Below, piece by piece: positions 1 to 64,000 of a stretch of DNA of 64,000 nt (positions are counted from its first letter, which is position 1; every line of letters starts with the position of its first letter). The stretch is from Escherichia phage HMD-P3. The notes under the pieces were generated by a model. It had not been told where the DNA came from. It ran no database searches and worked only from the letters and a program-made list of their open reading frames with translations. Position numbers and translations under genes: made by a program. The stretch is from sequence record PQ462667.1; one strand, 5' to 3'.

Positions 1-298
1 AACCCATGCTTATGGCTTGGTCTTCATAATTTGGAGTCCAGATAGTCCACTGTCCTTCGTCACGCCCAAATGTGAATACTCGTAGATCATGGAGATTTGT
101 AGATCCAGATAAAAACCATAGGAGTTCTCCAACTACCGATTTCCAAGCTAGACGTTTAGTGGTTACAGCTGGAAATCCTTCACGTAGATCGAACTTAGCA
201 TAGGAATCGAAAATCGAAACTGTGCCTGTCCCCGTACGATCGTTACGTGGTTCACCTAGTAAAATTACATCTGTTAGAATTTTTAAATATTGTTGCAT
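1..298 (-). CDS. thyA: thymidylate synthase, N-terminal part (gene runs off the left edge of the window)
   Basis: Minus-strand translation from ATG at 298..296 gives MQQYLKILTDVILLGEPRNDRTGTGTVSIF..., matching the conserved ThyA N-terminus as I recall it from E. coli; start overlaps the DHFR stop (TAATG). Confidence 0.8.
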   Translation of the reverse strand, partial: MQQYLKILTDVILLGEPRNDRTGTGTVSIFDSYAKFDLREGFPAVTTKRLAWKSVVGELLWFLSGSTNLHDLRVFTFGRDEGQWTIWTPNYEDQAISMG

Positions 299-831
299 TA
301 ATAAGTAACCAATTCCTGTACAAATCGCAGGCTGTTATCACTGTTTGCGCCAGTTGCGTAAACTAAACGAGTAGATTCATAGTTGTAATCTAGAATCGTA
401 TTATCCAGATGTACATCTGCCTCTAGTTTTTGATTACTAAAGATTGTGGATACGAAAGCACTTTCAATATGACCATGAATATACATTTCGTACAGTAATG
501 TTGCGCCACCTAAAACCACTGTCTGTTGATCTTTTAAGAATGTAGGTAATGTATCCCCAATCTTAGAAATTGGAGTGTAAATACCATGTTTAATATCATC
601 AGGCAGAGGACGATCCGCACGAATAAAGAGGTCAGATTCTCCAATCATACGTTGCCGAACAACTTCTGGAAGTGCTAAATAAGTACCCGCACCAATGATG
701 ATGTTATCTGGGTTCAACACGTCCAGTTGAGAGTAGAAAGCATCTAGTTCTTCTTTGAAGGAACCCCATGGAAGTTTACCTCGGAGGCCGAACTCCCCAT
801 TCGGCCCAACTGCATATAATGCCGTTATCAT
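298..831 (-). CDS. dihydrofolate reductase
   Basis: 177 aa ORF; DHFR-like N-terminal fold motifs (GxxGxLPW, VLGGATL); sits between nrdB and thyA as in T4/T5-type nucleotide operons; start overlaps nrdB stop (ATGA). Confidence 0.75.
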   Translation of the reverse strand: MITALYAVGPNGEFGLRGKLPWGSFKEELDAFYSQLDVLNPDNIIIGAGTYLALPEVVRQRMIGESDLFIRADRPLPDDIKHGIYTPISKIGDTLPTFLKDQQTVVLGGATLLYEMYIHGHIESAFVSTIFSNQKLEADVHLDNTILDYNYESTRLVYATGANSDNSLRFVQELVTY

Positions 832-1973
832 AAGAAATCTCCAAATTCATTGCCCAGATCTTTCAGAGTATCAGTAGAGGTCTCAGTTACCTGACCTACA
901 CGGTATGCTGCACCAATCTGGATTTCTTGTGGAGCAGGCTGTAGAGAAGTAGTATCCAACCAGTTCATGATCCACGGAATAGGGTTTTTGGTAATTACTG
1001 GTAAGTGACTAGGCCATTCTACACCAATGTGCATAAATGCGTTACGTCCCACAAAGTACAAATACTCTTCTAGAAGTTCTGCGTTCAAACCAATCAGGCT
1101 ACGACCTTTGAAAATGAAATGACCCCATTCAATTTCAGTTTTCAGAGTTTTCAGGAGCTGTGCTGGTGCTTTAGCCACTGCTTCATCTACCAGATCTTTG
1201 TCAAATTGCTGAAACATAATCTGGATGATTGCTTTGGACATCTGAGTATGCAGAGCTTCATCTTTAGCGATTAATTGCAGATTTTTAGCAATACCTTGCA
1301 GAATATCGTTCTCTGCTAATGCAAAGGTACATGCAAAGGATGCGTAAAACTGCATTGCTTCCAGACCATAGATCGCAAAGTAAGCGTCTAATAGTTTAGC
1401 CTGAGTTTCACGTTTAACTTCAGGGAACTCAGTTTCTGGGTATGTATTGTCGCCACGATGATCGCGTACTGCGATGAAATACTGACCTAACTGGTACAGT
1501 TCATCGAATAGTTCAACAGAATCAGCGATGCGTGCGAATGCTTCTTGGTTTTTGGTTACAGAATCAATAAATTCTGCTGGATCAGTTAACACATTACGAA
1601 TAATATTGCTATAAGCACGACTATGCAGATCTTCAAAATAGCTCCACTGCTTGAGCATACCTTCCAATTCTGGACGACTTACAAGCGGCATAATAGCTGC
1701 TTCAGGAGCACGACTGATAAAGGAGTCGGTTTGGGTTTGCCATGCTAAGTTCAGGAGTGTAATTTCCTGAATTTCACGCGGAAGGTTAGGCCATTGTTTC
1801 TTATCTGCTTCCAGACTGATTTCAGTTTCAGTCCAAAATTGAGAGCGTTGCAGTAGTGCCAGACGTTCTAGTTCTGGATGTGCTACACGTACGTAATCTG
1901 CGATACCGAGAGAATCTCCCAGGAAAAGGTCAGCGTTAGTATGATCCCAATTCAGGTTTAGTAAAGTAGTCAT
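828..1973 (-). CDS. nrdB: ribonucleotide reductase class Ia beta subunit
   Basis: 381 aa; di-iron ExxH ligand motifs (e.g. KDEALHTQ); immediately downstream of nrdA. Confidence 0.9.
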   Translation of the reverse strand: MTTLLNLNWDHTNADLFLGDSLGIADYVRVAHPELERLALLQRSQFWTETEISLEADKKQWPNLPREIQEITLLNLAWQTQTDSFISRAPEAAIMPLVSRPELEGMLKQWSYFEDLHSRAYSNIIRNVLTDPAEFIDSVTKNQEAFARIADSVELFDELYQLGQYFIAVRDHRGDNTYPETEFPEVKRETQAKLLDAYFAIYGLEAMQFYASFACTFALAENDILQGIAKNLQLIAKDEALHTQMSKAIIQIMFQQFDKDLVDEAVAKAPAQLLKTLKTEIEWGHFIFKGRSLIGLNAELLEEYLYFVGRNAFMHIGVEWPSHLPVITKNPIPWIMNWLDTTSLQPAPQEIQIGAAYRVGQVTETSTDTLKDLGNEFGDFL

Positions 1974-2079
1974 TGATTTTCCTCTTTCTCACTATTTCAG
2001 GAATATTATAGCAAATCTGGTAGAGATTAGCAAGTAAAATTTCAAAGAAAAAGGAGACCCGAAGATCTCCTTGTTTTTA

Positions 2080-4410
2080 TTAAATAGTACAACCACCGGA
2101 TGCACAACCGGCTGCTTCTTCTCCAGCACCTCCACCATTTGCGGTATTGAAGTTAGCATAATACCAAGTTTTCCACCCATACTTAACAGCAGTCATGAAA
2201 TCACGAACTACTACTGGGCCAGGAATGATTTCATTCTCAAACTTGGTGTAGTCATAGTACATATTCGTACTGATAGACTGACTGAAGAATTTCTGCATAG
2301 TTGCTACCCATTTGATCCACTCGATACGATCTACATCATAAGCCAGTTTATAGCTCATTAACGTTTCCCAATCGGTTGCGCCTGGAGCAATTGCAATTAC
2401 TTTATTTACTGCACTACCTTTAATAGATACAATCTTACGGGGTGGTTCGATAGAGTTAGTAACACCTAACAGAACAGAAGAACTTTCCCCTGGCATCTGA
2501 GCAGTCAGAACAGAGTTACGCATACCATATTTCAGAATATCTGCACGCAGAGACTCCCAATCCATTTCTAGACCTACGGATACCAGTTCATCAACAGTTT
2601 TCTTGTACGTGTCGATTACCAGAATTCCTTTAGATGGTTTAGTACGATCAAACCACTCACATGCACCCTGTTCTTTAGCTAGGCGTACAGAGGCTTTATG
2701 CAGGAAGTAAGACAGTTTTTCAGCTTCACGGTGAATCCAGTTACGGGCTTCAATACCTTCATAAGCCAGACCTTCTGCCGCCATTGCACCTGCTGCGTTC
2801 ATCAGGCCAATACCAACATTACGACGTTTCTTAGCCGTATATTCCATAGTTGGGAACGGATAATCCTGAATTTCAATAATTGTATCAACGAATTTCAGGA
2901 GGATGTAGCAAGTTTTTTCCCACTCAGCCAAAGATTCCATGCGCCCAAGTACAACACCACCTAAGTTACACAGAGATACTTCACCAATATCCTCCGGCTT
3001 CATTTGATCAAGCTGCTCTTTTGTCTTGTACAGCTCTGTAATGTGATGGAACGGGCGTGTAGGCTGAGTAATTTCAACACAAAGGTTTGTCATACGGATC
3101 GGATCAAGGAAGTTACCGTGACGATTAGATTCCCCGATGTGATGAGCATACATACGTCCTGTTTCCATTCGGATACGTAGCCAAGTATCTAGGATTTCTT
3201 TTGCAGAGACTTTAGGAGCTGCTGGAACTGTTTTTCCTTCGTGGTCGATCTTTGTAAGAGATGCCACACGTTTCTCCGCTGCCACGTAGATTTCTTCAAA
3301 TTTAGCCTCGTCATCACTATAAAACGCTTCATGAACTTCTGGAGCATAGAAGTATGACATTAGCGTAATATCTTCGTTTTTCAGATAACGTTTTAACAAA
3401 AGATTGTTGAAGCTCAGAGAGTAATCCATCTTATCGATTTTATTCTCATCTGTAGCACGTTGTTGCTTAACCTGCATCAATTGAATGATTTCAGGGTCGA
3501 AGTATGGATAAGACACTGTAGCAGAACCACCACGAGTTTGCTGAGTATTGGCCTTTACTGAGCGGTCAATGTGTCGATAATATGGCAGTTTTCCGGAATG
3601 CGGGAATGCCCCATTTCGCACCGGATCAGCAATTGATCGGCTTTCAAGATGATACCCGATTCCCGCTCTGGCTGCGACCATTTTGAAGACGATGTGCTCG
3701 GCGGTGTCGATTGAATCCAACGTGTCAGTGGAATCCACGAGGCAGCAACTAGCAAATCCACGGTCACTAGAGCGCAGACCAACCAGTGGCGGCGTAGGAA
3801 CGTTAATTTTGTGGAGCGACATTGCGTTGTAGAGGTCGATTGCATCTAGAATTGTCCAGTTAGGTTGAGATAGCATCGCCATTGCCATACCCATGTAGGC
3901 AAACTGCGGAGTTTCATAAATTTCACCAGTGGCTATGTTACGGCGGGAATACTTATCAAAGAACTGCTTCAGCCCACCACTAGTAAAAAGACGGTCACGA
4001 TCATGGTCGATAACCTGATTCAGAGCTTCAAATTGCTCATCGGTAATCCATGCACTCATGTCTTCCCATGCACCTACGCTAACCATATGGTCATGGAAGA
4101 AACGCAGAGAAGGCGGTTCGAAGGAATCATAAAGGCGTTTACGCATTTGCGCAAGACGTAATTCCTTTGCTGGCACATCATATGCTGGATTATCTTTGAT
4201 AAGACTTTCAGCAGCTTTAATTAATGCATCCATCAGAGTGTCGGAATCTACAACCCCTTTAGGCAGAGTTTTTTGAGCAGCCATAGTAATGGCTGACCAA
4301 CTTACATCAACTGTTTTGCAACCATACTCTGCCCAACCATTGATTTTTTCAGGAGCAAAGTCTTCTACAGTACCGTCACGTTTAATTACTTTTTCAATGC
4401 GATGGCTCAT
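2080..4410 (-). CDS. nrdA: ribonucleotide reductase class Ia alpha subunit
   Basis: Large ORF with ATP-cone-like N-terminus (HRIEKVIKRDGTVEDF) and catalytic NLCVEI motif. Start placed at ATG 4410 (RBS AAGGAAAG upstream) rather than the longest ORF start 4515. Confidence 0.88.
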   Translation of the reverse strand: MSHRIEKVIKRDGTVEDFAPEKINGWAEYGCKTVDVSWSAITMAAQKTLPKGVVDSDTLMDALIKAAESLIKDNPAYDVPAKELRLAQMRKRLYDSFEPPSLRFFHDHMVSVGAWEDMSAWITDEQFEALNQVIDHDRDRLFTSGGLKQFFDKYSRRNIATGEIYETPQFAYMGMAMAMLSQPNWTILDAIDLYNAMSLHKINVPTPPLVGLRSSDRGFASCCLVDSTDTLDSIDTAEHIVFKMVAARAGIGYHLESRSIADPVRNGAFPHSGKLPYYRHIDRSVKANTQQTRGGSATVSYPYFDPEIIQLMQVKQQRATDENKIDKMDYSLSFNNLLLKRYLKNEDITLMSYFYAPEVHEAFYSDDEAKFEEIYVAAEKRVASLTKIDHEGKTVPAAPKVSAKEILDTWLRIRMETGRMYAHHIGESNRHGNFLDPIRMTNLCVEITQPTRPFHHITELYKTKEQLDQMKPEDIGEVSLCNLGGVVLGRMESLAEWEKTCYILLKFVDTIIEIQDYPFPTMEYTAKKRRNVGIGLMNAAGAMAAEGLAYEGIEARNWIHREAEKLSYFLHKASVRLAKEQGACEWFDRTKPSKGILVIDTYKKTVDELVSVGLEMDWESLRADILKYGMRNSVLTAQMPGESSSVLLGVTNSIEPPRKIVSIKGSAVNKVIAIAPGATDWETLMSYKLAYDVDRIEWIKWVATMQKFFSQSISTNMYYDYTKFENEIIPGPVVVRDFMTAVKYGWKTWYYANFNTANGGGAGEEAAGCASGGCTI

Positions 4411-32389: not shown

Positions 32390-32414
32390 TCTACATATCA
32401 AATAAATAATAAAC

Positions 32415-32449
32415 CCCAATGGACAAAATCCATTGGGGTTTTCTTTTAT
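32415..32449. terminator. bidirectional rho-independent terminator between convergent early (+) and late (-) units
   Basis: 10-bp stem CCCCAATGGA / TCCATTGGGG with loop CAAAA, A-run upstream and T-run downstream. Confidence 0.75.
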
Positions 32450-34602
32450 TGTGATACTAGTTGTACCTTTAATTGCTCAAGCTCTTTCTCCAGATCTTCA
32501 ATCCTTTTAATAAGATCTTGCACAACATGCATAGTGTCAAGAAGCATTGGAGTTGTATCTAATTCCTTTTGTTCCTGCTCTACTCCGTCATCATTATAGA
32601 ATCTTCTGGTCTTTACATAGAGGGGCTCTATAGTCTCTACTTGCTGCGCAATAACCCCACGTCGGATACGAGATTTTTCATCGTTATTATATATAAAGGA
32701 CTGGAATTCTAATCCTTTTAATACCTCGATGGACTTAGTTGCATCTATAGCTTTAATATCATGCTTTAAACGAGAATCAGATATAGCATTTAACTGCAGA
32801 GTATACGTTGCTGCGCCATTGGGCCACCAAGAATAGAAATAAATACTATTATTGTTTGGCTGAATTTTTAAACGTACACCATATTTGTTATCCGCGTCTC
32901 CCGATACGTGCCAGCAAGAATCAGCAAAGGAACCCAAGTCATTATGAATTAATCCAAAATGTGCAGATGTTTTATACCCCGCAGTAGAATACTGGGAACC
33001 ACTCAAAATACTATTAAAATTAAATGTACTGCCTATATTCGCTTCGCTCTGAGAAAAAGTACCTTGTACCCAGCCTGTCTGAGACCACGCCATACCAGTT
33101 ACTAGTCTAGCTTCAAAACGATCCGCTACAAAATTCCCAGTATCTACAAGCTGGGCGGAACTCGATTTACCAGTAGATTTATTTTCTATTAGTAGCTCAG
33201 TAGAGTAGTTGCCATCAATAGTAGCTTTAGCACGTAATGTACTTACAGCTTCACTACTAGTACCTACTTTATACTCAGATAGTACACTCCCGCCATAAAC
33301 AGTAGTACTAGCAGAAGGTTTGACAGCATCGCCATTAATGACACTCCACGAGGTATTCGCAGCCACGAATCCACCAGAAGCACGGATTACCCATACACCG
33401 ACAAAGTTTCGTGTAAGGATTTCGTCCTGTGCTGCACCGTAGATAGGGCTTGAGTGTGAGGCGTCAAAATTTAATGTATTATAGCGCCCAGTTAATGCAA
33501 TATTTCCTGTACTGGGGATCGCATCCCCATCCCCATTAGGAAAAATCCCATTATTAACAAAGAATGCACCGGCAGCAGCAGACCCAAATACCTGAGCGTA
33601 GCTAGTACTTGAGTAGCTAGGAACAGTACCTGTTATATTAGGCGCAGCTGATTCAAATAGCTGACCATTTGCACTACTATTCCCACCATCACCACGACCG
33701 TAAAGAGCACGTATTGATCCTTGTTGCACACCGTTCCGATCTGGCACACGGAAAGTAGTTGTGCCATCACCCAAGGAGTATCTGCCACGCTGAAATTTAT
33801 CTGCTAACCAAACTGAATCATCTATGGCCCCAACCATTTGTGCATATGCCCAAAGTTCAGGCCAATCAGCCCTATTAAGGAGCTGTCCGTCAGAAACGAC
33901 TTCGTATGGCTGAATATACGCACGACTATCTCGGAGGTGAAAATCACCAACACCGTAGTTCATAACACCATTCATGGTAGGTCCAACTGTACCAGTGTTA
34001 ATCTTATTCTCTACCCAACGCTTAGTAACAGCATCATAATCATTAACGGGATCTCCAGCAAGTGGAGTAGACCCAATAGGGCGTACATTTAGCCACGCAG
34101 CGGCTCGGTCTGCTAAATCTGATAAATTATTTTCAGATAATAGACTTTCGTCTTTTGTTGGCACATTATAACTTTGTCTAAAAGCTTCTTTTGATACTAC
34201 TCCAGTACCTCCTTGTTCTATAGAAAGTGCAGTGGTTAAACCTGTTAAAGATTTAATAGTTGAGTTGGCACCATCCATGTCTATACTAGCAAATCTTGAC
34301 CATGCAGTCCATGAATTGTAAAAAGATCTACTATATATCTCATTACTATTATAAGGTAAGTAAATTTGAGTACAAGAAGTTGATAAACTGCTTGCATTAT
34401 TTTTTAAGACTAGTAATGTACCTGCAGCTGCAACAGGATAGTTAAGAGAAGTAGGAGAGTTAGCATTTCCAGATTGCCAGTACTTTCCATACACCCTTCC
34501 ATCAAGTGTATTTAAATCTGTTCCTGCAGTAATTAAACCATATACAGGTAATGCGGCTACATCAGTAGCCTTTAAGTTAATTTTATCAATTCTAAGAGCC
34601 AT
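32446..34602 (-). CDS. tail fibre protein with C-terminal intramolecular chaperone (peptidase S74-like) domain
   Basis: 718 aa, Gly/Ser/Thr-rich beta-structure-like body; C-terminal SDSRLKHDIKAID...GVIAQQVE block typical of auto-cleaving chaperone domains of phage fibres. Confidence 0.75.
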   Translation of the reverse strand: MALRIDKINLKATDVAALPVYGLITAGTDLNTLDGRVYGKYWQSGNANSPTSLNYPVAAAGTLLVLKNNASSLSTSCTQIYLPYNSNEIYSRSFYNSWTAWSRFASIDMDGANSTIKSLTGLTTALSIEQGGTGVVSKEAFRQSYNVPTKDESLLSENNLSDLADRAAAWLNVRPIGSTPLAGDPVNDYDAVTKRWVENKINTGTVGPTMNGVMNYGVGDFHLRDSRAYIQPYEVVSDGQLLNRADWPELWAYAQMVGAIDDSVWLADKFQRGRYSLGDGTTTFRVPDRNGVQQGSIRALYGRGDGGNSSANGQLFESAAPNITGTVPSYSSTSYAQVFGSAAAGAFFVNNGIFPNGDGDAIPSTGNIALTGRYNTLNFDASHSSPIYGAAQDEILTRNFVGVWVIRASGGFVAANTSWSVINGDAVKPSASTTVYGGSVLSEYKVGTSSEAVSTLRAKATIDGNYSTELLIENKSTGKSSSAQLVDTGNFVADRFEARLVTGMAWSQTGWVQGTFSQSEANIGSTFNFNSILSGSQYSTAGYKTSAHFGLIHNDLGSFADSCWHVSGDADNKYGVRLKIQPNNNSIYFYSWWPNGAATYTLQLNAISDSRLKHDIKAIDATKSIEVLKGLEFQSFIYNNDEKSRIRRGVIAQQVETIEPLYVKTRRFYNDDGVEQEQKELDTTPMLLDTMHVVQDLIKRIEDLEKELEQLKVQLVSQ

Positions 34603-34611
34603 TTTAATTCC

Positions 34612-34917
34612 TCATGCCCACATGCGAACAGGTGTTTCTGGGTTTACTATAAACTTATCTAGTATAGAGAGATCAAAATCATCAATATTCATAATACGCA
34701 GATTAACGTGATATCCTTCTTGCACTACATACTCAATATCTTCTATATTTTGATACTCTGTTAAGGGTTTTACAGGCTGACTAATAATACCTATAAAATC
34801 AATACTAACATTTTCACAGTATAAACTACCTGTTTCTTCATCTAAACTAAAGCCAAATTTTATCAAATTAATTTTCATTTCATCAGCATTAGTAAATTTT
34901 AGATATAAATCTTTCAT
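34612..34917 (-). CDS. hypothetical protein between the two fibre genes (101 aa)
   Basis: AAGGA RBS; preceded on the minus strand by a GGAGCAT/ATGCTCC hairpin. Confidence 0.5.
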   Translation of the reverse strand: MKDLYLKFTNADEMKINLIKFGFSLDEETGSLYCENVSIDFIGIISQPVKPLTEYQNIEDIEYVVQEGYHVNLRIMNIDDFDLSILDKFIVNPETPVRMWA

Positions 34918-34962
34918 TATAGGATCCTTAATTTATGGGAGCATTATATAATGCTCCTGTAC

Positions 34963-36168
34963 TTACCGTAAGCCATTAATCTGATCATTATTTAAGGCCC
35001 TATACCATACTCGGAAATTCTTAATATGATATACAAATTTAGAAACGGTATAAGGTGGTGGTGTACCTAACCTAGACGGAGTACCTGTCAAACTCACGGG
35101 AGTACTAGTAGATTTAGCAGTTTTACCATTAAAATAGTTGCTTATTTCATCTCCAACTATTTTTTGGACATAGGTCATAGGAGGTAAACTTTCTATATCT
35201 GGAATAGATAAGGTTGGCCCACCACTAGATCTATATGTTATTATAGTGGCACTATCACTGCTATTACAGCGGCAGATAATGTCATTCCTAGAGCCTCTTA
35301 CTTGCATAACTTCTACATAACTAGTATAAGGCCGTACTTTACAATTAAATTCAAAAGATACTGTACGCTCAAAGTAGTCCGCTAGGGTTCTATAGCCGGC
35401 ATTATCTGGTATACACCACCATTCATCTGCTGTTCTAGTAGTAGTGGTATCAGTGCTATTACGGATGTAAGAAGTTGGAGCTATGCCTTCCTCAACCTGT
35501 ATACCCCAGATGTAGAAACCAGAAACACCATCCCCCGGATAGACGGTAACACCAGTAGTTTTAGCCATCTGGAGTCTAAATATAGTATCTTTACTTGTAG
35601 TGGCAGCAAAAGAAAGCCAAATTCTATATATACCTCCAGTTAGTCTCTCATATCCCCCTCTAATATTACTAGCAGAACCACTTGTAGTAACAGTTTCATT
35701 TTTAATATCAAAAAACATGCCCGCTGTTGTACCGGAAGCTACACGTAGGTATACTAAACGATTTGCAGTATCATCTTTAACATAAGCAGAATAGCAATAA
35801 AAAGTATCAGCAGTCAAAGATATAAATTTATCTTTGGAATAATGCTCGCTGTCATTGGTATTCTCGGTAAACTTAGTCATTAACATTTCGCCAGTCGGAC
35901 AAGCCGAAGCATTAGGAGTTGTAATAACTGTACTACTTCCAGTAATTTCTTCTGAATTAGTATATAAATTAGTGCACTGGGACTCCATTAATAAACCTTG
36001 CTTTTCAAATCTAGGTTCATTAATATCTGCAAAACACATTTTACCACTTTTATCTATATAACTGGCGGTAGTTGAGCGAGTAAAATTTGCAGATTTTGTT
36101 GGTAATTCCAGAGTTACATCATTAATTGTTGCTAAATCGTAAGGGGCCATACCAGATAATAATCTCAT
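34963..36168 (-). CDS. lateral tail fibre protein, C-terminal (distal, probably receptor-binding) segment; ORF artificially separated from 36390..37058
   Basis: The reading frame is actually open upstream to 36384 without a start codon and continues the Ala-rich heptad repeats of the upstream ORF. Confidence 0.6.
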   Translation of the reverse strand: MRLLSGMAPYDLATINDVTLELPTKSANFTRSTTASYIDKSGKMCFADINEPRFEKQGLLMESQCTNLYTNSEEITGSSTVITTPNASACPTGEMLMTKFTENTNDSEHYSKDKFISLTADTFYCYSAYVKDDTANRLVYLRVASGTTAGMFFDIKNETVTTSGSASNIRGGYERLTGGIYRIWLSFAATTSKDTIFRLQMAKTTGVTVYPGDGVSGFYIWGIQVEEGIAPTSYIRNSTDTTTTRTADEWWCIPDNAGYRTLADYFERTVSFEFNCKVRPYTSYVEVMQVRGSRNDIICRCNSSDSATIITYRSSGGPTLSIPDIESLPPMTYVQKIVGDEISNYFNGKTAKSTSTPVSLTGTPSRLGTPPPYTVSKFVYHIKNFRVWYRALNNDQINGLR

Positions 36169-36389
36169 ATCATCAGTTAAAGGTACCCAAACATCCGGAT
36201 AGGGGACAGGTTCATATATAATAATACTAGCAGCAGAGGCAGCAGCAGCGGCTTCAGAAGCTTTAGCATTAATTTCAGAAGCTTTAGCATTAGTCTCTGA
36301 AGCTTTAGCATTAGTCTCAGAAGTTTTTGCTGCTGTTTGTGAAGCTGCTGCTGCATTTTTACTTGCTAATGCATCAGCGGCACTTCAAT

Positions 36390-37058
36390 TTAATGATACG
36401 GCGACCACCGAGATCTACACCTGAGGAAACACTCTTTCCCTACACGACGCTCTTCCGATCTAGCTGCCGCTAATTCGGAAGCTTTAGCATTAGTTTCAGA
36501 AGTCTTAGCATTAGTCTCAGAAGTTTTTGCTGCTGTTTGTGAAGCTGCTGCTGCATTTTTACTTGCTAATGCATTAGTCTCACTAGTTTTAGCATTAGTC
36601 TCGGAGGCTTTAGCTTTTGTTTCACTAGTCTTAGCATTAGTTTCTGATACTTTTGCATTAGTCTCTGAGGTTTTAGCCTTAGTTTCACTAGCTTTCGCAT
36701 TAGTCTCAGATACTTTAGCTGCTGCGGCTGATTCTGCAGATCTATCCGCTGATGCAGCAGATTGAGTAGCAGATGTAGCGGACTGAGTAGCAGAAGTTTC
36801 AGAAGCTCCAGCAGAAATAGCTGCTTCCTGTTCAGAGTTCTTAGCGTTAAGCTCCGAAGTTTTAGCCGCTATCTCAGAATCTTTTGCAGCTGCAGCAGAC
36901 TTAGCTGCTGCTTCAATAGAAGATACTAACTCACTTGCAGTAATAGAGCTAATAGAATTACCTAGAGTTACTGTATATCTAGGAAACTTACTAGCAGTAG
37001 CTTTAGTATCATCAATATTTAATATTTGTTGTACAATAATTTTAGTAGTTACTGCCAT
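36390..37058 (-). CDS. lateral tail fibre protein, N-terminal segment; C-terminal 20-odd residues are translated adapter
   Basis: Ala-rich repeats (SETNAKTSETKAK...); ORF ends ...SEERRVGKECFLRCRSRWSPYH, which is the reverse-complement translation of the adapter at 36392..36461. Confidence 0.6.
   Translation of the reverse strand: MAVTTKIIVQQILNIDDTKATASKFPRYTVTLGNSISSITASELVSSIEAAAKSAAAAKDSEIAAKTSELNAKNSEQEAAISAGASETSATQSATSATQSAASADRSAESAAAAKVSETNAKASETKAKTSETNAKVSETNAKTSETKAKASETNAKTSETNALASKNAAAASQTAAKTSETNAKTSETNAKASELAAARSEERRVGKECFLRCRSRWSPYH
36392..36461. other. embedded Illumina universal (P5) adapter sequence - assembly/library artefact
   Basis: AATGATACGGCGACCACCGAGATCTACAC + 8-nt index CTGAGGAA + ACACTCTTTCCCTACACGACGCTCTTCCGATCT, read directly from the sequence. 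Confidence 0.97.
36470..36760. repeat. tandem 21-bp coding repeats (heptad repeats of the fibre shaft)
   Basis: Successive 21-nt units of the form GCTTTAGCATTAGTCTCAGAA encoding (S/T)ETNAK(A/T) repeats on the minus strand. Confidence 0.7.
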
Positions 37059-57951: not shown

Positions 57952-59739
57952 TTAGGTAAGGCGTTGAACTGTTACTCTTAATCTCGGTAGGAAAATAGCT
58001 GCAGCCTCATCAGCGTGAATAATTACGCCCAATTCAGCATTACCATTTCCTAGATTTTTAATAGTATAAATATATCCGTTTCTTCTAAATGTTAACTCAT
58101 CAGGTCTACTTGCCCAAGTTTGAGTATAACTGTATGCAGTAGTGGAGTGATAAGGGACTAAGTATCCAGGAGGTAAGGTTAATATTTGATGGAATATTCC
58201 ATCACCTTCCGTGTAACTATGCTGTCTTCTTCCTTGTACTTGCCAAGCAGTACCACCGTATGTGCGTATGGCTCCTCCAGCCGTATTAATATTACCCATA
58301 ATAACTTCCGTAGTTAATATTACCGTTGCGTTAGCATTAGGTAATCCTAGTCCTATGGTAGCTAGAGCCGTATAATAGTTTCCTGCTCCAGGATACGCTG
58401 GGGTTATATCATCACCAACGTAGGTACTAGCAACATTATTAGGAAATAGTCTTAAAGGTACAGTACTAGGACTCCACACAGCTCCATGCTCATTACCGAT
58501 AGTGTTATTACTTGAGTTTACGTACCATTGCTTACCAGCTCCGAACTTGTAAATACTAATCTGAGACTTAGCCCCTCCATAATCTACAGGAGACCATAAA
58601 GATCCATTACTAGAGCCTACAATTTCACAACGCGCAGTGGTATCTCCAAAGGCTCCAGTGTACGCTGCGTTATTTCCAATGTACTCCATATCTGGTCTAT
58701 AGCCTAAATTACCAAAAGCATTTTGGTTGATAAACTTATATCCAGTATTTGGTAAACTAACCCCTTTTACAGTAAAATTAGATGGAGTTATAAGTATATC
58801 TGATCCGGTAAATGGGTTACCAGATACACCCATATTACCATTAGAATATCTCAAATTAAGTACATACCAAATAACCTTAGTAGGAGTTATGTTATACCAA
58901 TCCTGCACATACACTTTCTTAGCGGCCTGTGCTGCTAGATTAGATGTTGAACCTTTACATATATAAACCTTATCAGGATACGTAGGAGATTGGTATAATA
59001 AGTTAACATTAGCTGGTACTGTGCCCTTTTTACCTACGTAACCTCGTATATTAGAGTTACAAACGTAAAACCAATTATGCCCTCTATGGGCGGCCCCTAT
59101 AGGAGCTTGCCAGTTAGGATGCCAGTAGTCAGCATTACCACCATCTATAGGTACTGTAGACGCTCCTGCTGGAAATCCTGCTAAAGTCCATGCCCTTCCA
59201 ATAGCCTCGCCAGCATATGCACCACCAGGCCTATATAAATTAAATCCAGAGGCTTGAGATATAGTACCTCCTGTACCCTGCCTAGCAATTGACTCTTCAT
59301 GCCCTAAACCAGAGTTATAAATATAAGTGCCATGTGCTAAGCTGTTACCTGATGCAAAAGCTGACGTAAGACCTACTTCTGCACCTGCCCTACCAATAGG
59401 CGGATCTTCAAAAAATGCAGTAAATTGACCAACTTGAGACTGAGTACCATTAAGAAAAGCCCTATGAGTACCATTAATCTCAACGGCAGTTAGTATAACT
59501 CTACCAGGGTCGTTGGATTTAATATTTATTATGTCAGAGGGCATCTGACATACAAAAAACCCATTTCCAGCATTTCCTAACCCAGCCTCATAAGTACCAT
59601 CAACTAGGACAAATGGCATATCACTATGAAAAATACTATTGGCATTTGGACTATAGTGACGATTAATGTCACCACCAGATTCAGTATTTAAAGATAGTAC
59701 GGTCTTACCATCGCTATATTTTCCAGCGAAAAAACCCAT
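57952..59739 (-). CDS. receptor-binding tail protein (T5 pb5-like)
   Basis: 595 aa, Gly/Asn/Tyr-rich beta protein; located at the distal end of the late region, divergent from a lipoprotein gene exactly as oad/llp in T5. Confidence 0.6.
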
Positions 59740-59764
59740 ATAATCTCCTATTATAAAAATGTAT

Positions 59765-59793
59765 TTGCTTTCATCCCTCTATTTTGCTATAAT
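59765..59793 (+). promoter_or_regulatory. T5-type promoter with extended -10 upstream of the lipoprotein gene
   Basis: TTGCTT 59765..59770, 17 bp, TGcTATAAT (TATAAT 59788..59793), then AGATTCATAAATTAGAAATGGAGAG and ATG 59825. Confidence 0.65.
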
Positions 59794-59824
59794 AGATTCA
59801 TAAATTAGAAATGGAGAGATAAAT

Positions 59825-60091
59825 ATGAAAAAGTTTGTGATTGCACTAGTTGCCGCAGTTATGTTATCTGGTTGTGCACCTGCTCCCAAACCATTTTGTA
59901 CTGGATTTGTAAAATCTTTTGGTGGTGCGGGAGAAGAACATTACGGCCTCAAGATTCAAAAAGTTCGTATTAAGGGAGATCGCTTCCCAGTAGTACAGCT
60001 CCGTACTAAGTTTGGGTGGTGGGATCTCAGTCAGTTTGATCTTAAATATGGGGATTGTAAATTTAAACTAGAGCAATCTAACTACCTGTAA
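59825..60091 (+). CDS. llp: Llp-like lipoprotein (receptor-blocking superinfection-exclusion protein)
   Basis: 88 aa; signal peptide MKKFVIALVAAVMLSGC with lipobox LSGC; divergent from the RBP gene. Confidence 0.7.
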   Translation: MKKFVIALVAAVMLSGCAPAPKPFCTGFVKSFGGAGEEHYGLKIQKVRIKGDRFPVVQLRTKFGWWDLSQFDLKYGDCKFKLEQSNYL

Positions 60092-60204
60092 TTAGTATAA
60101 AGCAAAAAGACATCCAAGTAAACTAAATTTTTTATTTTTTGGATGGTATATTGGTAGAAACCACTATGTAAGAAAAGTAGAAGTCCTTCTAGGAAGTCAC
60201 AAGC

Positions 60205-60396
60205 ATGGTTGGTTATGCACAAACTATAAAATATTCCAAATACAACATTTACAGGAGCATGAAAGATATGTCAAATAAAAGAAAGAACAGACGCGGAGAA
60301 GTGTACGAAAGTTGGATAAATAGTTTCGGATTTGGTTTTGTATTATTCCTAATCTTCGTAGGCTTTTGGTTAGCAGCTATGGCGGGGTGGATATAA
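60205..60396 (+). CDS. small membrane protein (63 aa, C-terminal TM helix)
   Basis: Basic N-terminal half then hydrophobic GFGFVLFLIFVGFWLAAMAGW; AGGAAG RBS. Confidence 0.45.
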   Translation: MVGYAQTIKYSKYNIYRSMKDMSNKRKNRRGEVYESWINSFGFGFVLFLIFVGFWLAAMAGWI

Positions 60397-60500
60397 TGGG
60401 AGTAATAATTATTATTTTATTAGTTGTGATAATTCTAGGGCAGTGTGTCTTGGATAACCACTTAGCTCGTATTGAACGTAAGCTACGGGAATATAAATAA
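60396..60500 (+). CDS. small membrane peptide (34 aa), not in the supplied ORF track
   Basis: ATG overlaps the upstream stop (TAATG); translates to MGVIIIILLVVIILGQCVLDNHLARIERKLREYK; its stop overlaps the next ATG (TAATG). Confidence 0.4.
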   Translation: MGVIIIILLVVIILGQCVLDNHLARIERKLREYK

Positions 60501-60745
60501 TGTTTAGTATTGTAATTGCTTTTATTATCGGGATACTCGCGGGAGTTTTCGGGACGACTGCGGTAATCAACAAGCATCGTAAATATATTGCGGGGGTGAC
60601 GCGGGAGATTGCGGAAAGGGAGCGGAAGTTTGACGAGAAACGTGCGGAGTTTGAGCGGGAGTGGTCAGATGGATCTCGGGCGTCGCGGAAGAGATTCCGT
60701 GAGTTTAGACCAGAACACAGGTTTGATGACCCTTCTATGCGCTAA
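60500..60745 (+). CDS. small membrane protein (81 aa, N-terminal TM helix, charged C-terminus), GC-rich codons
   Basis: MFSIVIAFIIGILAGVFGTTAV then Arg/Glu-rich tail; G/C-ending codons unlike the rest of the window. Confidence 0.45.
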   Translation: MFSIVIAFIIGILAGVFGTTAVINKHRKYIAGVTREIAERERKFDEKRAEFEREWSDGSRASRKRFREFRPEHRFDDPSMR

Positions 60746-60896
60746 TTTGACTTTTGCCAAATTTCATAAGATTACACATGGAGGTGTGTCCAGTGGCCTC
60801 CCAGATGAGAATGAGTCTCGTTACCGCCCGGTACTTAGCAGACTAATAGTCACGGCATGTTATCATTGCACACCGTGACTATTTCAATTTTAATTA

Positions 60897-61631
60897 TTAC
60901 GCAACTTTTAATTTCTCAATATATTGTTGCGGGCTGCAACTATATTCTGCGCGTTCTTCTTCGGTCATACTTTCCCAACATAATTTTAAGCGATCGGCTA
61001 GGAACTGATAATCATTATCATCCTCGAGAGATTCATCAATAAAGGTTCCGCCTATCAATGCCGCGCCGATCGATAGAATATCATTAACGGCTTGCGCATC
61101 TAGCGTTTTAAATCCATATGATGCCGCTGCTGATAATACACCTTTATGATCATCAATCATCGTAAAATCAGCATTCGGATATAACTGTTTAAATAATTCA
61201 AAATAATAACTTTTATATACTGCGTCCTTGCTGTGGTATATTTCGCTAACCTTATCAGCCTCAAAATATTTATGCAGTGTATCACGGGAAAATACACGGA
61301 TATTACTATCCCCACGCCCGCGCAATCCTTGTTTACGCAAATAATAATAATCCGACTTGCTCATCAGTCGAGCGGTACAAATAATGTTTAAAGTATTTGC
61401 GTCATTCATGCATTGGCGCATATATTCAACTAATGGTAATAAAGTATCTTGCATAATTAAATCATGTTTGCAAGCCTCATTTTTATACTTATTTAAATCT
61501 AAATTCCCATCGCTATCAAAGCAAGGTGCTACACGATGGAATGAGTTAACGATAGTGCCATCCAGATCCCAGATCATGACGCGGGAAATATGCGGGAAAT
61601 TACGGGAAATATTCGTTTTAACTTGATTCAT
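60897..61631 (-). CDS. HAD-type 5-prime-deoxyribonucleotidase-like phosphatase (T5 dmp-like pre-early gene)
   Basis: HAD motif I MIWDLDGTIVNSF; start set at ATG 61631 (GGAGA RBS), giving 244 aa; longest ORF from 61673. Confidence 0.65.
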   Translation of the reverse strand: MNQVKTNISRNFPHISRVMIWDLDGTIVNSFHRVAPCFDSDGNLDLNKYKNEACKHDLIMQDTLLPLVEYMRQCMNDANTLNIICTARLMSKSDYYYLRKQGLRGRGDSNIRVFSRDTLHKYFEADKVSEIYHSKDAVYKSYYFELFKQLYPNADFTMIDDHKGVLSAAASYGFKTLDAQAVNDILSIGAALIGGTFIDESLEDDNDYQFLADRLKLCWESMTEEERAEYSCSPQQYIEKLKVA

Positions 61632-61711
61632 TTTGTTACGTTCTCCATTAAAGGGATGTAGTTTATCCAGCATTGCCCGCTATTTATAAGCGGGCAATAA
61701 TAAATCAACTA

Positions 61712-62104
61712 TTAAAGACCATAAGCCAACGCATCAGCGATAAAACTAATATCTTCGCCGGATACGTGGGAACGAATGCCCGCGCATGTAAATACCTTCG
61801 CGCTCATTAGTTGATCATCAAGACAAGCCGGACAAGGCGCGACAACTGCAAACGCTAGGCCGGATTTTACGGCGTCGATGATAATCGTTTCCTGCTTCAC
61901 CGTGTCAACATAAACGCCTGCGGCCTTGATGTGACTACTAGCGCGGCCTTGCGTATATGCGAAGGTAGTAACCTGCAAAGCCTCATTGAAATCTAATAGA
62001 TCATCAATAACGTGCCCCGCCTCTACGTGGTAACGTTCGCCGTTAGAATAAACCAGAACGATTGAGGATTGAGCGCGATCGAATGGGATATTTTGCTTTT
62101 TCAT
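61712..62104 (-). CDS. hypothetical pre-early protein (130 aa)
   Basis: GGAG RBS 9 nt upstream; contains HVE ... PCPAC residues. Confidence 0.55.
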   Translation of the reverse strand: MKKQNIPFDRAQSSIVLVYSNGERYHVEAGHVIDDLLDFNEALQVTTFAYTQGRASSHIKAAGVYVDTVKQETIIIDAVKSGLAFAVVAPCPACLDDQLMSAKVFTCAGIRSHVSGEDISFIADALAYGL

Positions 62105-62168
62105 GTTTATAACTCCAATTAATTTAATAAGGGTATAAGCTGGGAATATTCCCAGCTTATAAATTTAA

Positions 62169-63833
62169 TTATGCGAAAAATTTGCCGTTTTTAAAGTCAA
62201 TCAAAGTGCGCTGGCCGTTCGCATAGGTAATTAAATGCGTTTGCGTCCAGCTTGACGCGCCAACGTTATAGCCCATATCTAGGGAACCAGCGACGCCCGC
62301 CGTATATACGCCGCCGTATATGCTGGCGGTGTGGGTGTGCCCCGTGTTTAATTTGCCTAGTTTCTTAAATTGTTTTGGATTGCCACGGCTGCCGTTAATG
62401 CCGTTGTGACCGTGTACACCGCACTCAATGCCTGCAATCTTGAAAGATTGATCAGTCGTTAGGAAAATCGCGTTAAACTCACAACCTGCGACGTCACGCA
62501 GCGCATAATCTAGCACGTTAAAAGTATCATCCTGCTTTGCAATAGCTGCATAGATAGCGGCATTCAGGCGGTGATACAGTTCCGCGTTTGCTGGATCATC
62601 TTTAATGTTAGCATTACGATCATCAAGCCAACGAGATAGCGCCAAATCGTGGTTTGATTCCACGATGATTGTTTGACTAAAATCACGTTCCATTGATTCC
62701 AGCACGCGCCCGGTGTCGATCAAATCATCCATAACCTTATCGCGTCCGGCTGCATACTGTTTCGCTAGAAATACACCGGAAGCGCGGTTATGGTGATTGC
62801 GTGATGTAAAATCGTGAACGTCATGGATAAACTGATATTTTGGCTTGAGAATATCAAGCAAACTGTTTTCGCCAGCCCATGACGCTGCGGCGCACTCCTC
62901 ATCTAATTTTTCAGCGTGCACGTCGCCATACTGCAAGCCTAAAACATGCCCCGACGTTTCAAAACATCCGGCGGGGGTCGCGCAAACATTCAGATCATAA
63001 AACATGCCGCTTTCGTCCATCGTTTCAAGCTGGCGCACAAAAAACTCACCGTCTTCGTCGAACTCAACAATCAGCGCACCGTAATTATGCAGCGCCTCCG
63101 CTTTCTGTCCTGCTTTTTGCTGAATGTAGTTTTTGAGCGTTGCCGTTCCGGTTGAGTACATGCGGCGCACCACTTCACCTTTTAAAGCTGGGACACTTTC
63201 GGCGGTGATTTTAGCGTGACCAATTGCCAGACCTTCCAGATTAAGCGCCGTTGCAGTTTCTGCAAATCCAGACAGTGGATAGTCTGCGGTCGGTAGCACG
63301 TTAATCTCTGCCATGAAAGCAAAACGGCGGTTATTTAAAAACACGTTTTTGCTGCAAATATATTTATCAAATGCGGAATCATATTTTACACCGTCTGCGC
63401 CTTCACCATTTTGAAAGCCGTTTTTGTTATAAATATACTTAGAAACGAGCAAATCAGCGCCGCAAAATTTAGCATATTGTTCAAGTGAGGCTAAAAAGTT
63501 TTTATGAGGGAAAGTATTGTTCTGAATCGATGTAATAATAAAGCGTTTTCCCTGTTTTACTTCCCACTGTTCCACCGTGCTAGAAATAATTCCAGCCGCT
63601 TCGGGGCGCTCGTCGTTTTTGATAGCTTTTACAGCTTTCGCCGCTTTTGGTTTTGCTGGTTTATTTTCTTCTAACCAATCACAAATAGCGGTCGAGTGTT
63701 TCGTTGTATCGTAGACCGCTTTTGATATATAGTCGCAGACTTCCAGCTTAGTAGCGCGCAGACGTTTACCGTAGAAATTAAAATCAGCGGCCATCTTCAG
63801 GATAACGGTTTGTTTTTCTGCGGAAAAAATCAT
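62169..63833 (-). CDS. calcineurin-like metallophosphoesterase (T5 A1-like pre-early protein)
   Basis: 554 aa; phosphoesterase-like motifs GDVHA, ESNHD, GVHGHNG, GHTHT; size and position match T5 A1 as I recall it. Confidence 0.6.
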   Translation of the reverse strand: MIFSAEKQTVILKMAADFNFYGKRLRATKLEVCDYISKAVYDTTKHSTAICDWLEENKPAKPKAAKAVKAIKNDERPEAAGIISSTVEQWEVKQGKRFIITSIQNNTFPHKNFLASLEQYAKFCGADLLVSKYIYNKNGFQNGEGADGVKYDSAFDKYICSKNVFLNNRRFAFMAEINVLPTADYPLSGFAETATALNLEGLAIGHAKITAESVPALKGEVVRRMYSTGTATLKNYIQQKAGQKAEALHNYGALIVEFDEDGEFFVRQLETMDESGMFYDLNVCATPAGCFETSGHVLGLQYGDVHAEKLDEECAAASWAGENSLLDILKPKYQFIHDVHDFTSRNHHNRASGVFLAKQYAAGRDKVMDDLIDTGRVLESMERDFSQTIIVESNHDLALSRWLDDRNANIKDDPANAELYHRLNAAIYAAIAKQDDTFNVLDYALRDVAGCEFNAIFLTTDQSFKIAGIECGVHGHNGINGSRGNPKQFKKLGKLNTGHTHTASIYGGVYTAGVAGSLDMGYNVGASSWTQTHLITYANGQRTLIDFKNGKFFA

Positions 63834-63936
63834 AATAATAAAACACCATTAAAGAGATTAAAAAACGTTTGTTATTGGCAATATAGCAAAATATAACGCC
63901 TCGAATAAAAGGAGTAATAATTTGCAACATTAAGAA

Positions 63937-63980
63937 CGGAAGAGCACACGTCTGAACTCCAGTCACAGGACAGACTCTCG
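63937..63980. other. Illumina index-adapter remnant at the right edge - artefact
   Basis: CGGAAGAGCACACGTCTGAACTCCAGTCAC followed by an 8-nt index-like AGGACAGA and CTCTCG; ORF 63784..63966 (MTGVQTCALPF...) is its translation. Confidence 0.9.
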
Positions 63981-64000
63981 GAAACCCTCGAATTCGATAA

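Follow-up and report, generated by a model that had tools for sequence, protein, structure and literature searches.

The window analyzed here is a 64,000-nucleotide (nt) stretch of the genome of Escherichia phage HMD-P3 (PQ462667.1), and the subject of this report is the rise in GC content at its right end, positions 60500–63900. The window belongs to a T5-like phage (Tequintavirus), and its counterpart in T5, with which it is colinear, spans ~47.5 kb to 115.0 kb. A local gene map was drawn from open reading frames (ORFs), PHROG matches, and the annotations of T5, Spc35, and KPP2018; by annotation comparison, gene order and strand at the right end are also colinear with Spc35 and KPP2018. Judged from these alignments, the late region of a Tequintavirus phage meets its right terminal repeat in this stretch, and the junction is native. 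The left boundary of the repeat is at 60787/60788, as placed by the start of the Spc35 'right TR' (terminal repeat) annotation, which maps to 60787, and by three genomes with annotated repeats, which start with GTCCAGTGGCC. The segment 60787–63933 belongs to the copy of the direct terminal repeat that is on the right in this orientation; it holds the first 3.15 kb of this copy, which an adapter cuts short at 63933, and it matches T5 105–3476 and 113230–115007. The same sequence, as the left copy, is the first DNA to enter the cell.

The genes in this part of the repeat are all on the minus strand. They are dmp, which encodes a deoxynucleoside-5'-monophosphatase of 244 residues (60897–61631; PHROG 415 and the T5 annotation), a T5.002-like pre-early gene of 130 residues (61712–62104; PHROG 4576; 88% identical to T5.002), and A1, an essential pre-early gene of 554 residues (62169–63833; PHROG 1745, E = 4e-243; 93% identical to T5 A1) that is preceded by 100 bp of 25% GC. 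The start of dmp was assigned to ATG 61631 (MNQVK...), which is kept in all relatives, stands behind GGAGAACGTAAC (a GGAG), and gives the 244-residue protein annotated in T5; a mechanical ORF call instead places the start at ATG 61673, which overlaps a conserved hairpin. An assignment of the 130-residue ORF beside A1 to A2 was rejected: the ORF is unrelated to A2 and is the homolog of T5.002. On the other side of the boundary, in unique DNA outside the terminal repeat, the plus strand carries three small membrane-protein ORFs (60205–60745), the last of which (60500–60745; PHROG 6447, E = 1e-46) encodes an 81-residue homolog of T5.162. A Pfam search of A1, the T5.002-like protein, and dmp gave no match, and the 81-residue ORF gave a sub-threshold match to LapA_dom only; neither A1 nor the T5.002-like protein had a significant sequence match among solved structures.

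The GC content is 43.1% over 60500–63900 and 39.0% over 1–60499. Among 3.4-kb segments of the window the right end ranks at the top; relative to all upstream 3.4-kb windows it has a z score of 2.8, and only 0.07% of those windows reach its GC. An earlier reading of this DNA from its letters alone (the sequence-only reading) had estimated 45–50% GC for this region, a value that holds for 61700–63350 (46.8%, z = 3.7, with 300-bp peaks of up to 49.7% in A1) and for 60500–60786 (47.4%) but not for the whole of 60500–63900. The terminal rise that it described stands in comparison with the rest of the window; it is, however, neither uniform, since dmp forms a trough of 36–37% over 60950–61650, nor unique, since 779–4179 equals the right end at 43.2%. 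The baselines of 30–35% for the early and 38% for the structural regions were not borne out: the early block (1–32390) has 39.4% GC and the late block 38.7%. By gene, the values are 49.6% for the 81-residue T5.162-like gene, 37.3% for dmp, 47.6% for the T5.002-like gene, and 45.5% for A1, and the T5.002-like gene has the highest GC among the 54 ORFs of at least 100 residues in the window, the set that was also used to rank third-position composition. The rise starts ~290 bp before the repeat boundary, within a gene of the unique region, and so does not coincide with the pre-early module. A model in which the whole pre-early module is GC-rich is ruled out by the left repeat of T5, which has 40.0% GC as compared with 39.1% in its unique DNA. 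The homologous genes of T5 have GC fractions of 0.450 (A1), 0.444 (T5.002), 0.471 (A2), 0.476 (T5.162), and 0.392 (dmp). The composition shift is real but modest and patchy, and it is gene-specific rather than module-wide.

The sequence-only reading had also raised, in view of adapter artefacts, a chimeric assembly in which a GC-rich end was mis-joined to a phage contig at 60.0–60.9 kb. Untrimmed adapters are indeed present in the window, but they lie elsewhere, at 36392–36461 and from 63934; there is no adapter sequence at 60.0–60.9 kb and no adapter 12-mer between 36462 and 63932. Positions 59500–63933 align to relatives without a gap in homology, 248 phage records cover at least 80% of this query, and the best matches have 90–93% identity in single continuous alignments. 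Comparison with T5 at the homologous position, which that reading had proposed as part of the check that could refute a chimera, gave the same gene order and the same per-gene GC and third-position composition. On these alignments a chimeric join is effectively refuted, and we assign it a negligible probability; non-native junctions are confined to the two untrimmed adapters.

The GC content at third codon positions (GC3) is 0.458 for the T5.002-like gene (rank 1) and 0.450 for A1 (rank 2) of the 54 ORFs, for which the mean is 0.301 and the standard deviation 0.059. The value for dmp is 0.331, the other 51 ORFs have a pooled GC3 of 0.294, and the 81-residue ORF reaches 0.524 through G-ending codons, so that a switch to G/C-ending codons, as described by the sequence-only reading, is found in A1, the T5.002-like gene, and the 81-residue ORF but not in dmp. 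Third positions carry ~85% of the GC excess of A1. Of 100 T5 genes, A2 and A1 lead in GC3 when three spurious antisense ORFs are set aside. Most of the GC rise comes from synonymous third positions in A1 and in the T5.002-like gene, and in relatives A2 contributes as well.

In their codon usage, A1 and the T5.002-like gene depart from the AT-rich norm of the phage in the direction of the enterobacterial host. When the change in codon frequency from the remaining genes to A1 and T5.002 is set against the offset of E. coli from the remaining genes, the Pearson correlation reaches 0.76 for the window and 0.77 for T5. This correlation persists within the G/C-ending codons (rho 0.68–0.72) and within the A/T-ending codons (0.58–0.70), which shows that the shift is not a generic gain of GC. 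In the window, none of the 24 Arg codons of the two genes is AGA, AGG, CGA, or CGG, as compared with 330 of 793 elsewhere (p = 5e-6), and only CGC and CGT (CGY) are used; ATA accounts for 2 of 42 Ile codons versus 261 of 1243 (p = 0.006), and GGC for 50% of Gly codons versus 11% (p = 8e-11). GCG, ACC/ACG, AAC, CAC, and TGC are also increased.

The use of codons that are rare in the host follows the time of expression. In T5, AGA and AGG (AGR) make up 3% of Arg codons and ATA 0% of Ile codons in A1, A2, and T5.002, with a GC3 of 0.43; the corresponding values are 17%, 17%, and 0.36 for the other 14 pre-early genes, 29%, 16%, and 0.32 for the early genes, and 42%, 29%, and 0.30 for the late genes. 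For A1 with the T5.002-like gene, the early genes, and the late genes of the window, AGR is 0, 18, and 47%, ATA is 5, 10, and 33%, and GC3 is 0.45, 0.32, and 0.26, respectively. The AGR and ATA gradients are present in the window, in T5, and in the phages KPN4 and PG07. In Klebsiella phage KPN4 (Sugarlandvirus), whose A1 is 74% identical, AGR accounts for 0 of 34 Arg codons in A1, A2, and T5.002 and for 23% in 28 neighboring genes (p = 7e-4), and ATA for 0 of 53 Ile codons versus 21% in the same neighbors (p = 3e-5). In Vibrio phage PG07, with an A1 that is 32% identical, A1 and A2 have 16% AGR versus 45% (p = 7e-4) and 8% ATA versus 30% (p = 0.004). The avoidance in PG07 comes without a rise in GC3, which is 0.417 in A1 and A2 and 0.412 elsewhere, and GC3 itself is therefore not the conserved variable. 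What is conserved is that the core pre-early genes avoid host-rare codons, and the visible GC peak is the form that this avoidance takes in the AT-rich background of Tequintavirus.

A different evolutionary origin, which the sequence-only reading had put forward, would mean that the block of A1 and T5.002 was imported from a phage or host of higher GC and has not yet converged on its new genome. The codon usage of the block is closer to that of an average E. coli gene than to that of a highly expressed one, A1 of the Klebsiella relative KPN4 has 49% GC, and relatives differ in the genes that lie between A1 and T5.002; these three observations fit an import. Homologs of A1, however, occur in 1134 phage records, including phages of Vibrio, Shewanella, Caulobacter, Flavobacterium, and Rhizobium, and A1 is reported to be a hallmark of all 227 Demerecviridae genomes examined by Annor et al. 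(2026, bioRxiv 10.64898/2026.04.02.716235). Among 27 distinct Tequintavirus A1 sequences drawn from 35 IMG/VR loci, GC3 stays within 0.386–0.478 despite differences at four-fold sites of 33% on average and of up to 55%; non-CGY Arg codons average 2.5% and ATA 2.9%. Changes from AT to GC number 123 and those from GC to AT number 100, so there is no GC-to-AT excess. The turnover of A1 is read from these raw counts and the observed GC3 ranges only; an 'implied equilibrium GC3' obtained by majority-rule polarization was dropped because it appeared biased, at ~0.40–0.42 even for genes of low GC3. A GC3 that is stable despite deep synonymous divergence indicates that the composition of A1 is maintained and is not the decaying trace of a recent import. 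The same avoidance of rare codons recurs in genera with only 32–74% A1 identity, and neither A1 nor the T5.002-like protein has a Pfam match or a relative among solved structures. We therefore regard an import as very improbable.

A codon-level constraint on the core pre-early genes best explains the shift, and we favor, with modest confidence, the timing of tRNA supply during two-step DNA entry as its cause. In T5, the tRNA genes, among them Arg-UCU, Ile2-CAU, Gly-UCC, and Leu-UAG, lie at 28–41 kb, whereas the first-step-transfer DNA covers 1–10.2 kb; Arg-UCU reads AGA and AGG, and Ile2-CAU reads AUA. KPN4 has 25 tRNA genes, including Arg-UCU, located 23–33 kb from A1. No tRNA genes were found in the 64-kb window because the equivalent region falls outside it. 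Among the pre-early genes only A1 and A2 are essential, and T5 can do without T5.002 (Annor et al., 2026, bioRxiv 10.64898/2026.04.02.716235). Second-step DNA transfer requires both A1 and A2. The A1, A2, and T5.002 proteins would thus be translated from first-step-transfer DNA while ~24 phage tRNA genes, including those for Arg-UCU and Ile2-CAU, are still outside the cell in the second-step-transfer DNA. Because A1 and A2 are needed before the tRNA genes can enter and themselves bring in the remaining genome, selection would keep them readable by the host tRNA pool alone, and later genes would be free to drift toward AT-ending, host-rare codons served by the phage tRNAs. In a genome of 39% GC, such a constraint would appear as a local peak of GC3. 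Of the explanations named by the sequence-only reading, a distinct selective constraint on the pre-early module is the one that survives in part: the constraint acts mainly at third positions, is host-like, and is strongest in A1, T5.002, and (in T5) A2.

Several observations weigh against the tRNA-timing explanation. The remaining pre-early genes carry only a weak host-like signal, and hegG carries none; the pre-early genes with little adaptation include dmp, with 18% ATA in its homologs, T5.011, with 60% non-CGY Arg, and hegG, with a GC3 of 0.24. CTA and CCA, for which the host tRNAs are likewise rare, show no avoidance (CTA 20% versus 21%, p = 1.0). The argument leaves unexplained the preference for C- or G-ending codons over T-ending codons that are equally decodable (GGC over GGT, CGC over CGT), and the flat GC3 of PG07 noted above is a further difficulty. 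A1 is only moderately adapted to a highly expressed codon set computed from the ribosomal and elongation-factor genes of MG1655, ranking 13th of 54 in the window and 19th of 100 in T5; the other E. coli reference was a genome-average codon table. Abundant late genes such as that of the major capsid protein likewise avoid AGA and ATA, so that avoidance alone does not prove an effect of timing. Given these weak points, rival explanations at the levels of expression and of nucleotide composition are kept open.

According to the first of these, A1, A2, and T5.002 are simply abundant proteins under ordinary expression-level codon selection, regardless of when tRNAs become available. The second-step-transfer genes D5, the major capsid protein gene, and D11 (annotated as a single-strand DNA binding protein) have rare-codon fractions of 0–1%, and terL is also sparing in non-CGY Arg (~12%), as expected if expression level were decisive. 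These highly expressed genes, however, use the T-ending codons that are optimal in E. coli ribosomal genes, with adaptation indices of 0.65–0.77 and a GC3 of 0.33–0.40, whereas A1 combines a moderate index (0.44–0.45) with the top GC3. T5.002, which is dispensable in T5, shows no sign of a major role, and timing is the better fit to the monotonic change from pre-early to early to late genes. Expression level as the sole cause is accordingly rated as unlikely.

The second rival is nucleotide-level selection or bias, whether GC is favored against H-NS-type silencing, against AT-rich spurious promoters, against Rho termination, on the earliest transcribed DNA, or for mRNA stability, or is raised by GC-biased gene conversion in the repeat, which recombines in each replication cycle. 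This would account for the choice of codons ending in C or G where T-ending ones are decoded equally well, and the 14 other pre-early genes of the T5 repeat are slightly raised, with a GC3 of 0.355 as compared with 0.32 for early and 0.30 for late genes. Genes within the same repeat nevertheless differ widely (GC3 0.33–0.37 for dmp, 0.26 for T5.003, and 0.24 for hegG, as compared with 0.43–0.45 for A1 and A2), the shift follows host preference even among codons with the same ending, and PG07 avoids rare codons with no gain in GC3. We consider a nucleotide-level cause improbable, less so than an import and more so than selection by expression level.

Hairpins separate the genes in this region, as the sequence-only reading had observed, and add negligibly to the GC shift. 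The hairpin between the T5.002-like gene and dmp, given there as 61675–61695, exists and has its core at 61673–61697 within a fold of 61660–61710 on the minus strand (-22.9 kcal/mol with flanks, z = -5.45). Across 12 distinct relatives it has 19 consensus pairs, seven of them with compensatory double changes. Several of the pairs are G-U and would be A-C mismatches on the opposite strand; they form on the mRNA-sense strand only, which points to a function in the minus-strand mRNA. The hairpin between A1 and the T5.002-like gene also exists, 5–7 nt away from the position first given (62129–62154), as a 12-bp stem-loop on the minus strand at 62134–62161 (-18.4 kcal/mol, z = -3.75). In nine distinct relatives in which A1 abuts T5.002 it is kept in position with changed stem sequence (GCTGGG/CCCAGC, GCGGGG/CCCCGC, GCTGGAA/TTCCAGC, and GGCGGC/GCCGCC). 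A third hairpin, with a 15-bp stem, follows just past the dmp stop codon (60845–60883, from a fold of 60750–60896 on the minus strand), ~60–95 bp inside the repeat boundary, and includes a perfect 11-nt inverted repeat (designated I3).

On the transcribed (minus) strand, the stems of all three hairpins lack a U-tract behind them, and the tails behind the two intergenic stems are UGCUGGAUAAAC and UACCCUUAUUAAAU. The hairpins have the GC-rich stem-loop of canonical intrinsic terminators but lack this U-tract and so are not terminators of that kind. Scans with promoter and terminator consensus sequences gave results near shuffle expectation and did not call the hairpins as minus-strand terminators; the terminator scan flags 62134–62161 in the plus-strand reading only. 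A search of Rfam at E <= 1 over 59600–64000 found nothing. From their covariation and conserved position, the intergenic hairpins are conserved at the mRNA level in the pre-early operon, and a role in mRNA stability or processing is suggested at low confidence.

The interval between A1 and T5.002 (62105–62168 in the window; loci L010–L044 in the relatives) differs in gene content among relatives. It holds the hairpin alone in this phage and in eight other distinct sequences, T5.003 in T5, and at least two further unrelated inserts in other relatives.

More tentatively, two-step entry may leave the first-entering genes 'blind' to the phage tRNAs, with A1, A2, and T5.002 nearly free of AGA, AGG, and ATA throughout the family, a signature kept across the Escherichia/Salmonella, Klebsiella, and Vibrio lineages, and the hairpins may be undescribed regulatory RNAs; we hold this combined reading with less than even confidence. 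If it is true, the signature could predict genes that act before second-step transfer in uncharacterized Demerecviridae, and the role of the phage tRNAs would be directly testable by recoding A1 and A2. Confirmation would provide an experimental handle on the question of why large lytic phages carry tRNA genes.

Some features close to the GC-rich genes were also recorded. Over 60296–60700 the plus strand has a strong skew of G over C, +0.55 over 150 nt, the second largest in the window, with GCGG(G/A)A-like motifs ~10–12 bp apart in several frames of the T5.162-like gene, 130–300 bp before the repeat boundary. The homologous region of T5 has the third-largest skew of that genome, and divergence at four-fold sites is 0.13 in 60296–60700 as compared with 0.19–0.36 in the adjoining genes. 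The stretch could be a putative Rho-loading site on a C-rich antisense RNA or a packaging-related signal. GCGGGA occurs 14 times in the window versus 9.2 expected, with no window-wide enrichment, and 5 of the 14 lie in 60539–61597, all on the plus strand. In the 5' part of dmp, 61581–61610 comprises three tandem (G/A)CGGGAAAT copies that encode ISR-NFPH-ISR.

Upstream of the T5.162-like gene are the gene for the receptor-binding protein (57952–59739, minus strand) and that for the receptor-blocking lipoprotein (59825–60091, plus strand), both assigned from ORFs, PHROG matches, and annotation. The receptor-binding gene represents the opposite codon extreme, with a GC3 of 0.24 and, among homologs, 84% non-CGY Arg and 47% ATA. 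Together with the lipoprotein gene and the first small ORFs, it falls in a stretch (57952–60500) that has no blastn match to T5 but matches Spc35 and KPP2018, which suggests an exchanged receptor-recognition module. The tail-fiber region holds another block, 32390–36937, that lacks a nucleotide match to T5 and is equivalent to T5 81.4–85.9 kb.

Phage homology ends at 63933, and adapter 12-mers match from 63933. The sequence at 63934–64000 (plus strand) is an Illumina TruSeq index-adapter read-through, GA[A]CGGAAGAGCACACGTCTGAACTCCAGTCAC followed by an index; it carries a single mismatch, and its tail is degenerate. A full-length Illumina P5/TruSeq universal adapter occupies 36392–36461, where AATGATACGGCGACCACCGAGATCTACAC is followed by the index CTGAGGAA and then by ACACTCTTTCCCTACACGACGCTCTTCCGATCT. 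It is embedded in the repetitive part of an L-shaped tail-fiber-like gene and is flanked by the same ~40 nt of phage sequence, at 36300–36340 and about 36499–36540. Positions 36462–63933 are thereby bracketed by two adapters in the manner of one giant library insert, an arrangement that is an assembly artefact. Because the adapter cuts the repeat at 63933, ~7 kb of the ~10-kb repeat is outside the window, and T5.005, A2, T5.007, the strong pre-early promoters, and the injection stop signal, which lie beyond this point, are absent. For curation, the junction at 60–61 kb is trustworthy as native; the record has to be trimmed or repaired at both adapters (63934 and 36392–36461), and its terminal repeat is incomplete.

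In comparison with known systems, the closest counterpart is the pre-early repeat of T5 itself (NC_005859, 1–3476 and 111532–115007), in which dmp, T5.002, and A1 have the same order and strand, the repeat boundary falls just after the T5.162-like gene, and the per-gene GC pattern is the same. The phage studied here differs from T5 in lacking T5.003, so that A1 abuts T5.002 with a hairpin between them, in a DNA identity of only ~86–87%, and in a copy of the repeat that ends at 63933 at the adapter. Horizontally acquired islands and morons resemble the right end in having a local deviation of GC and codon usage beside a structural boundary, here the repeat edge, but the present deviation occurs in all relatives, persists through deep synonymous divergence, and resides in hallmark genes of the family. 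In the early mRNA of T7, RNase III sites are intercistronic stem-loops of a phage early operon. The hairpins described here are similarly conserved between cistrons of a polycistronic early transcript, although their stems of 9–12 bp (at most 19 pairs with a weak lower stem) are shorter than those of typical RNase III substrates.

Codon usage in T4 is also partitioned in time, between early and late genes. Temporal partitioning tied to phage tRNAs has been described in other phages (Mioduser et al., 2017, PMC5683454; Shigella phage Sf14, PMC12482277), and no T5-specific account of pre-early codon bias was found in the literature searched. As in other tRNA-carrying phages, the host-rare codons read by phage tRNAs (AGA/AGG and ATA) are enriched late and depleted earliest, and the present genes provide a clean, small case of codon usage stratified by expression time. 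The T5-like phages differ in that two-step entry physically excludes the tRNA genes from the cell while A1 and A2 are made. Two-step entry is thus a physical mechanism that could make dependence on host tRNAs absolute, rather than gradual, for the two genes that admit the rest of the genome.

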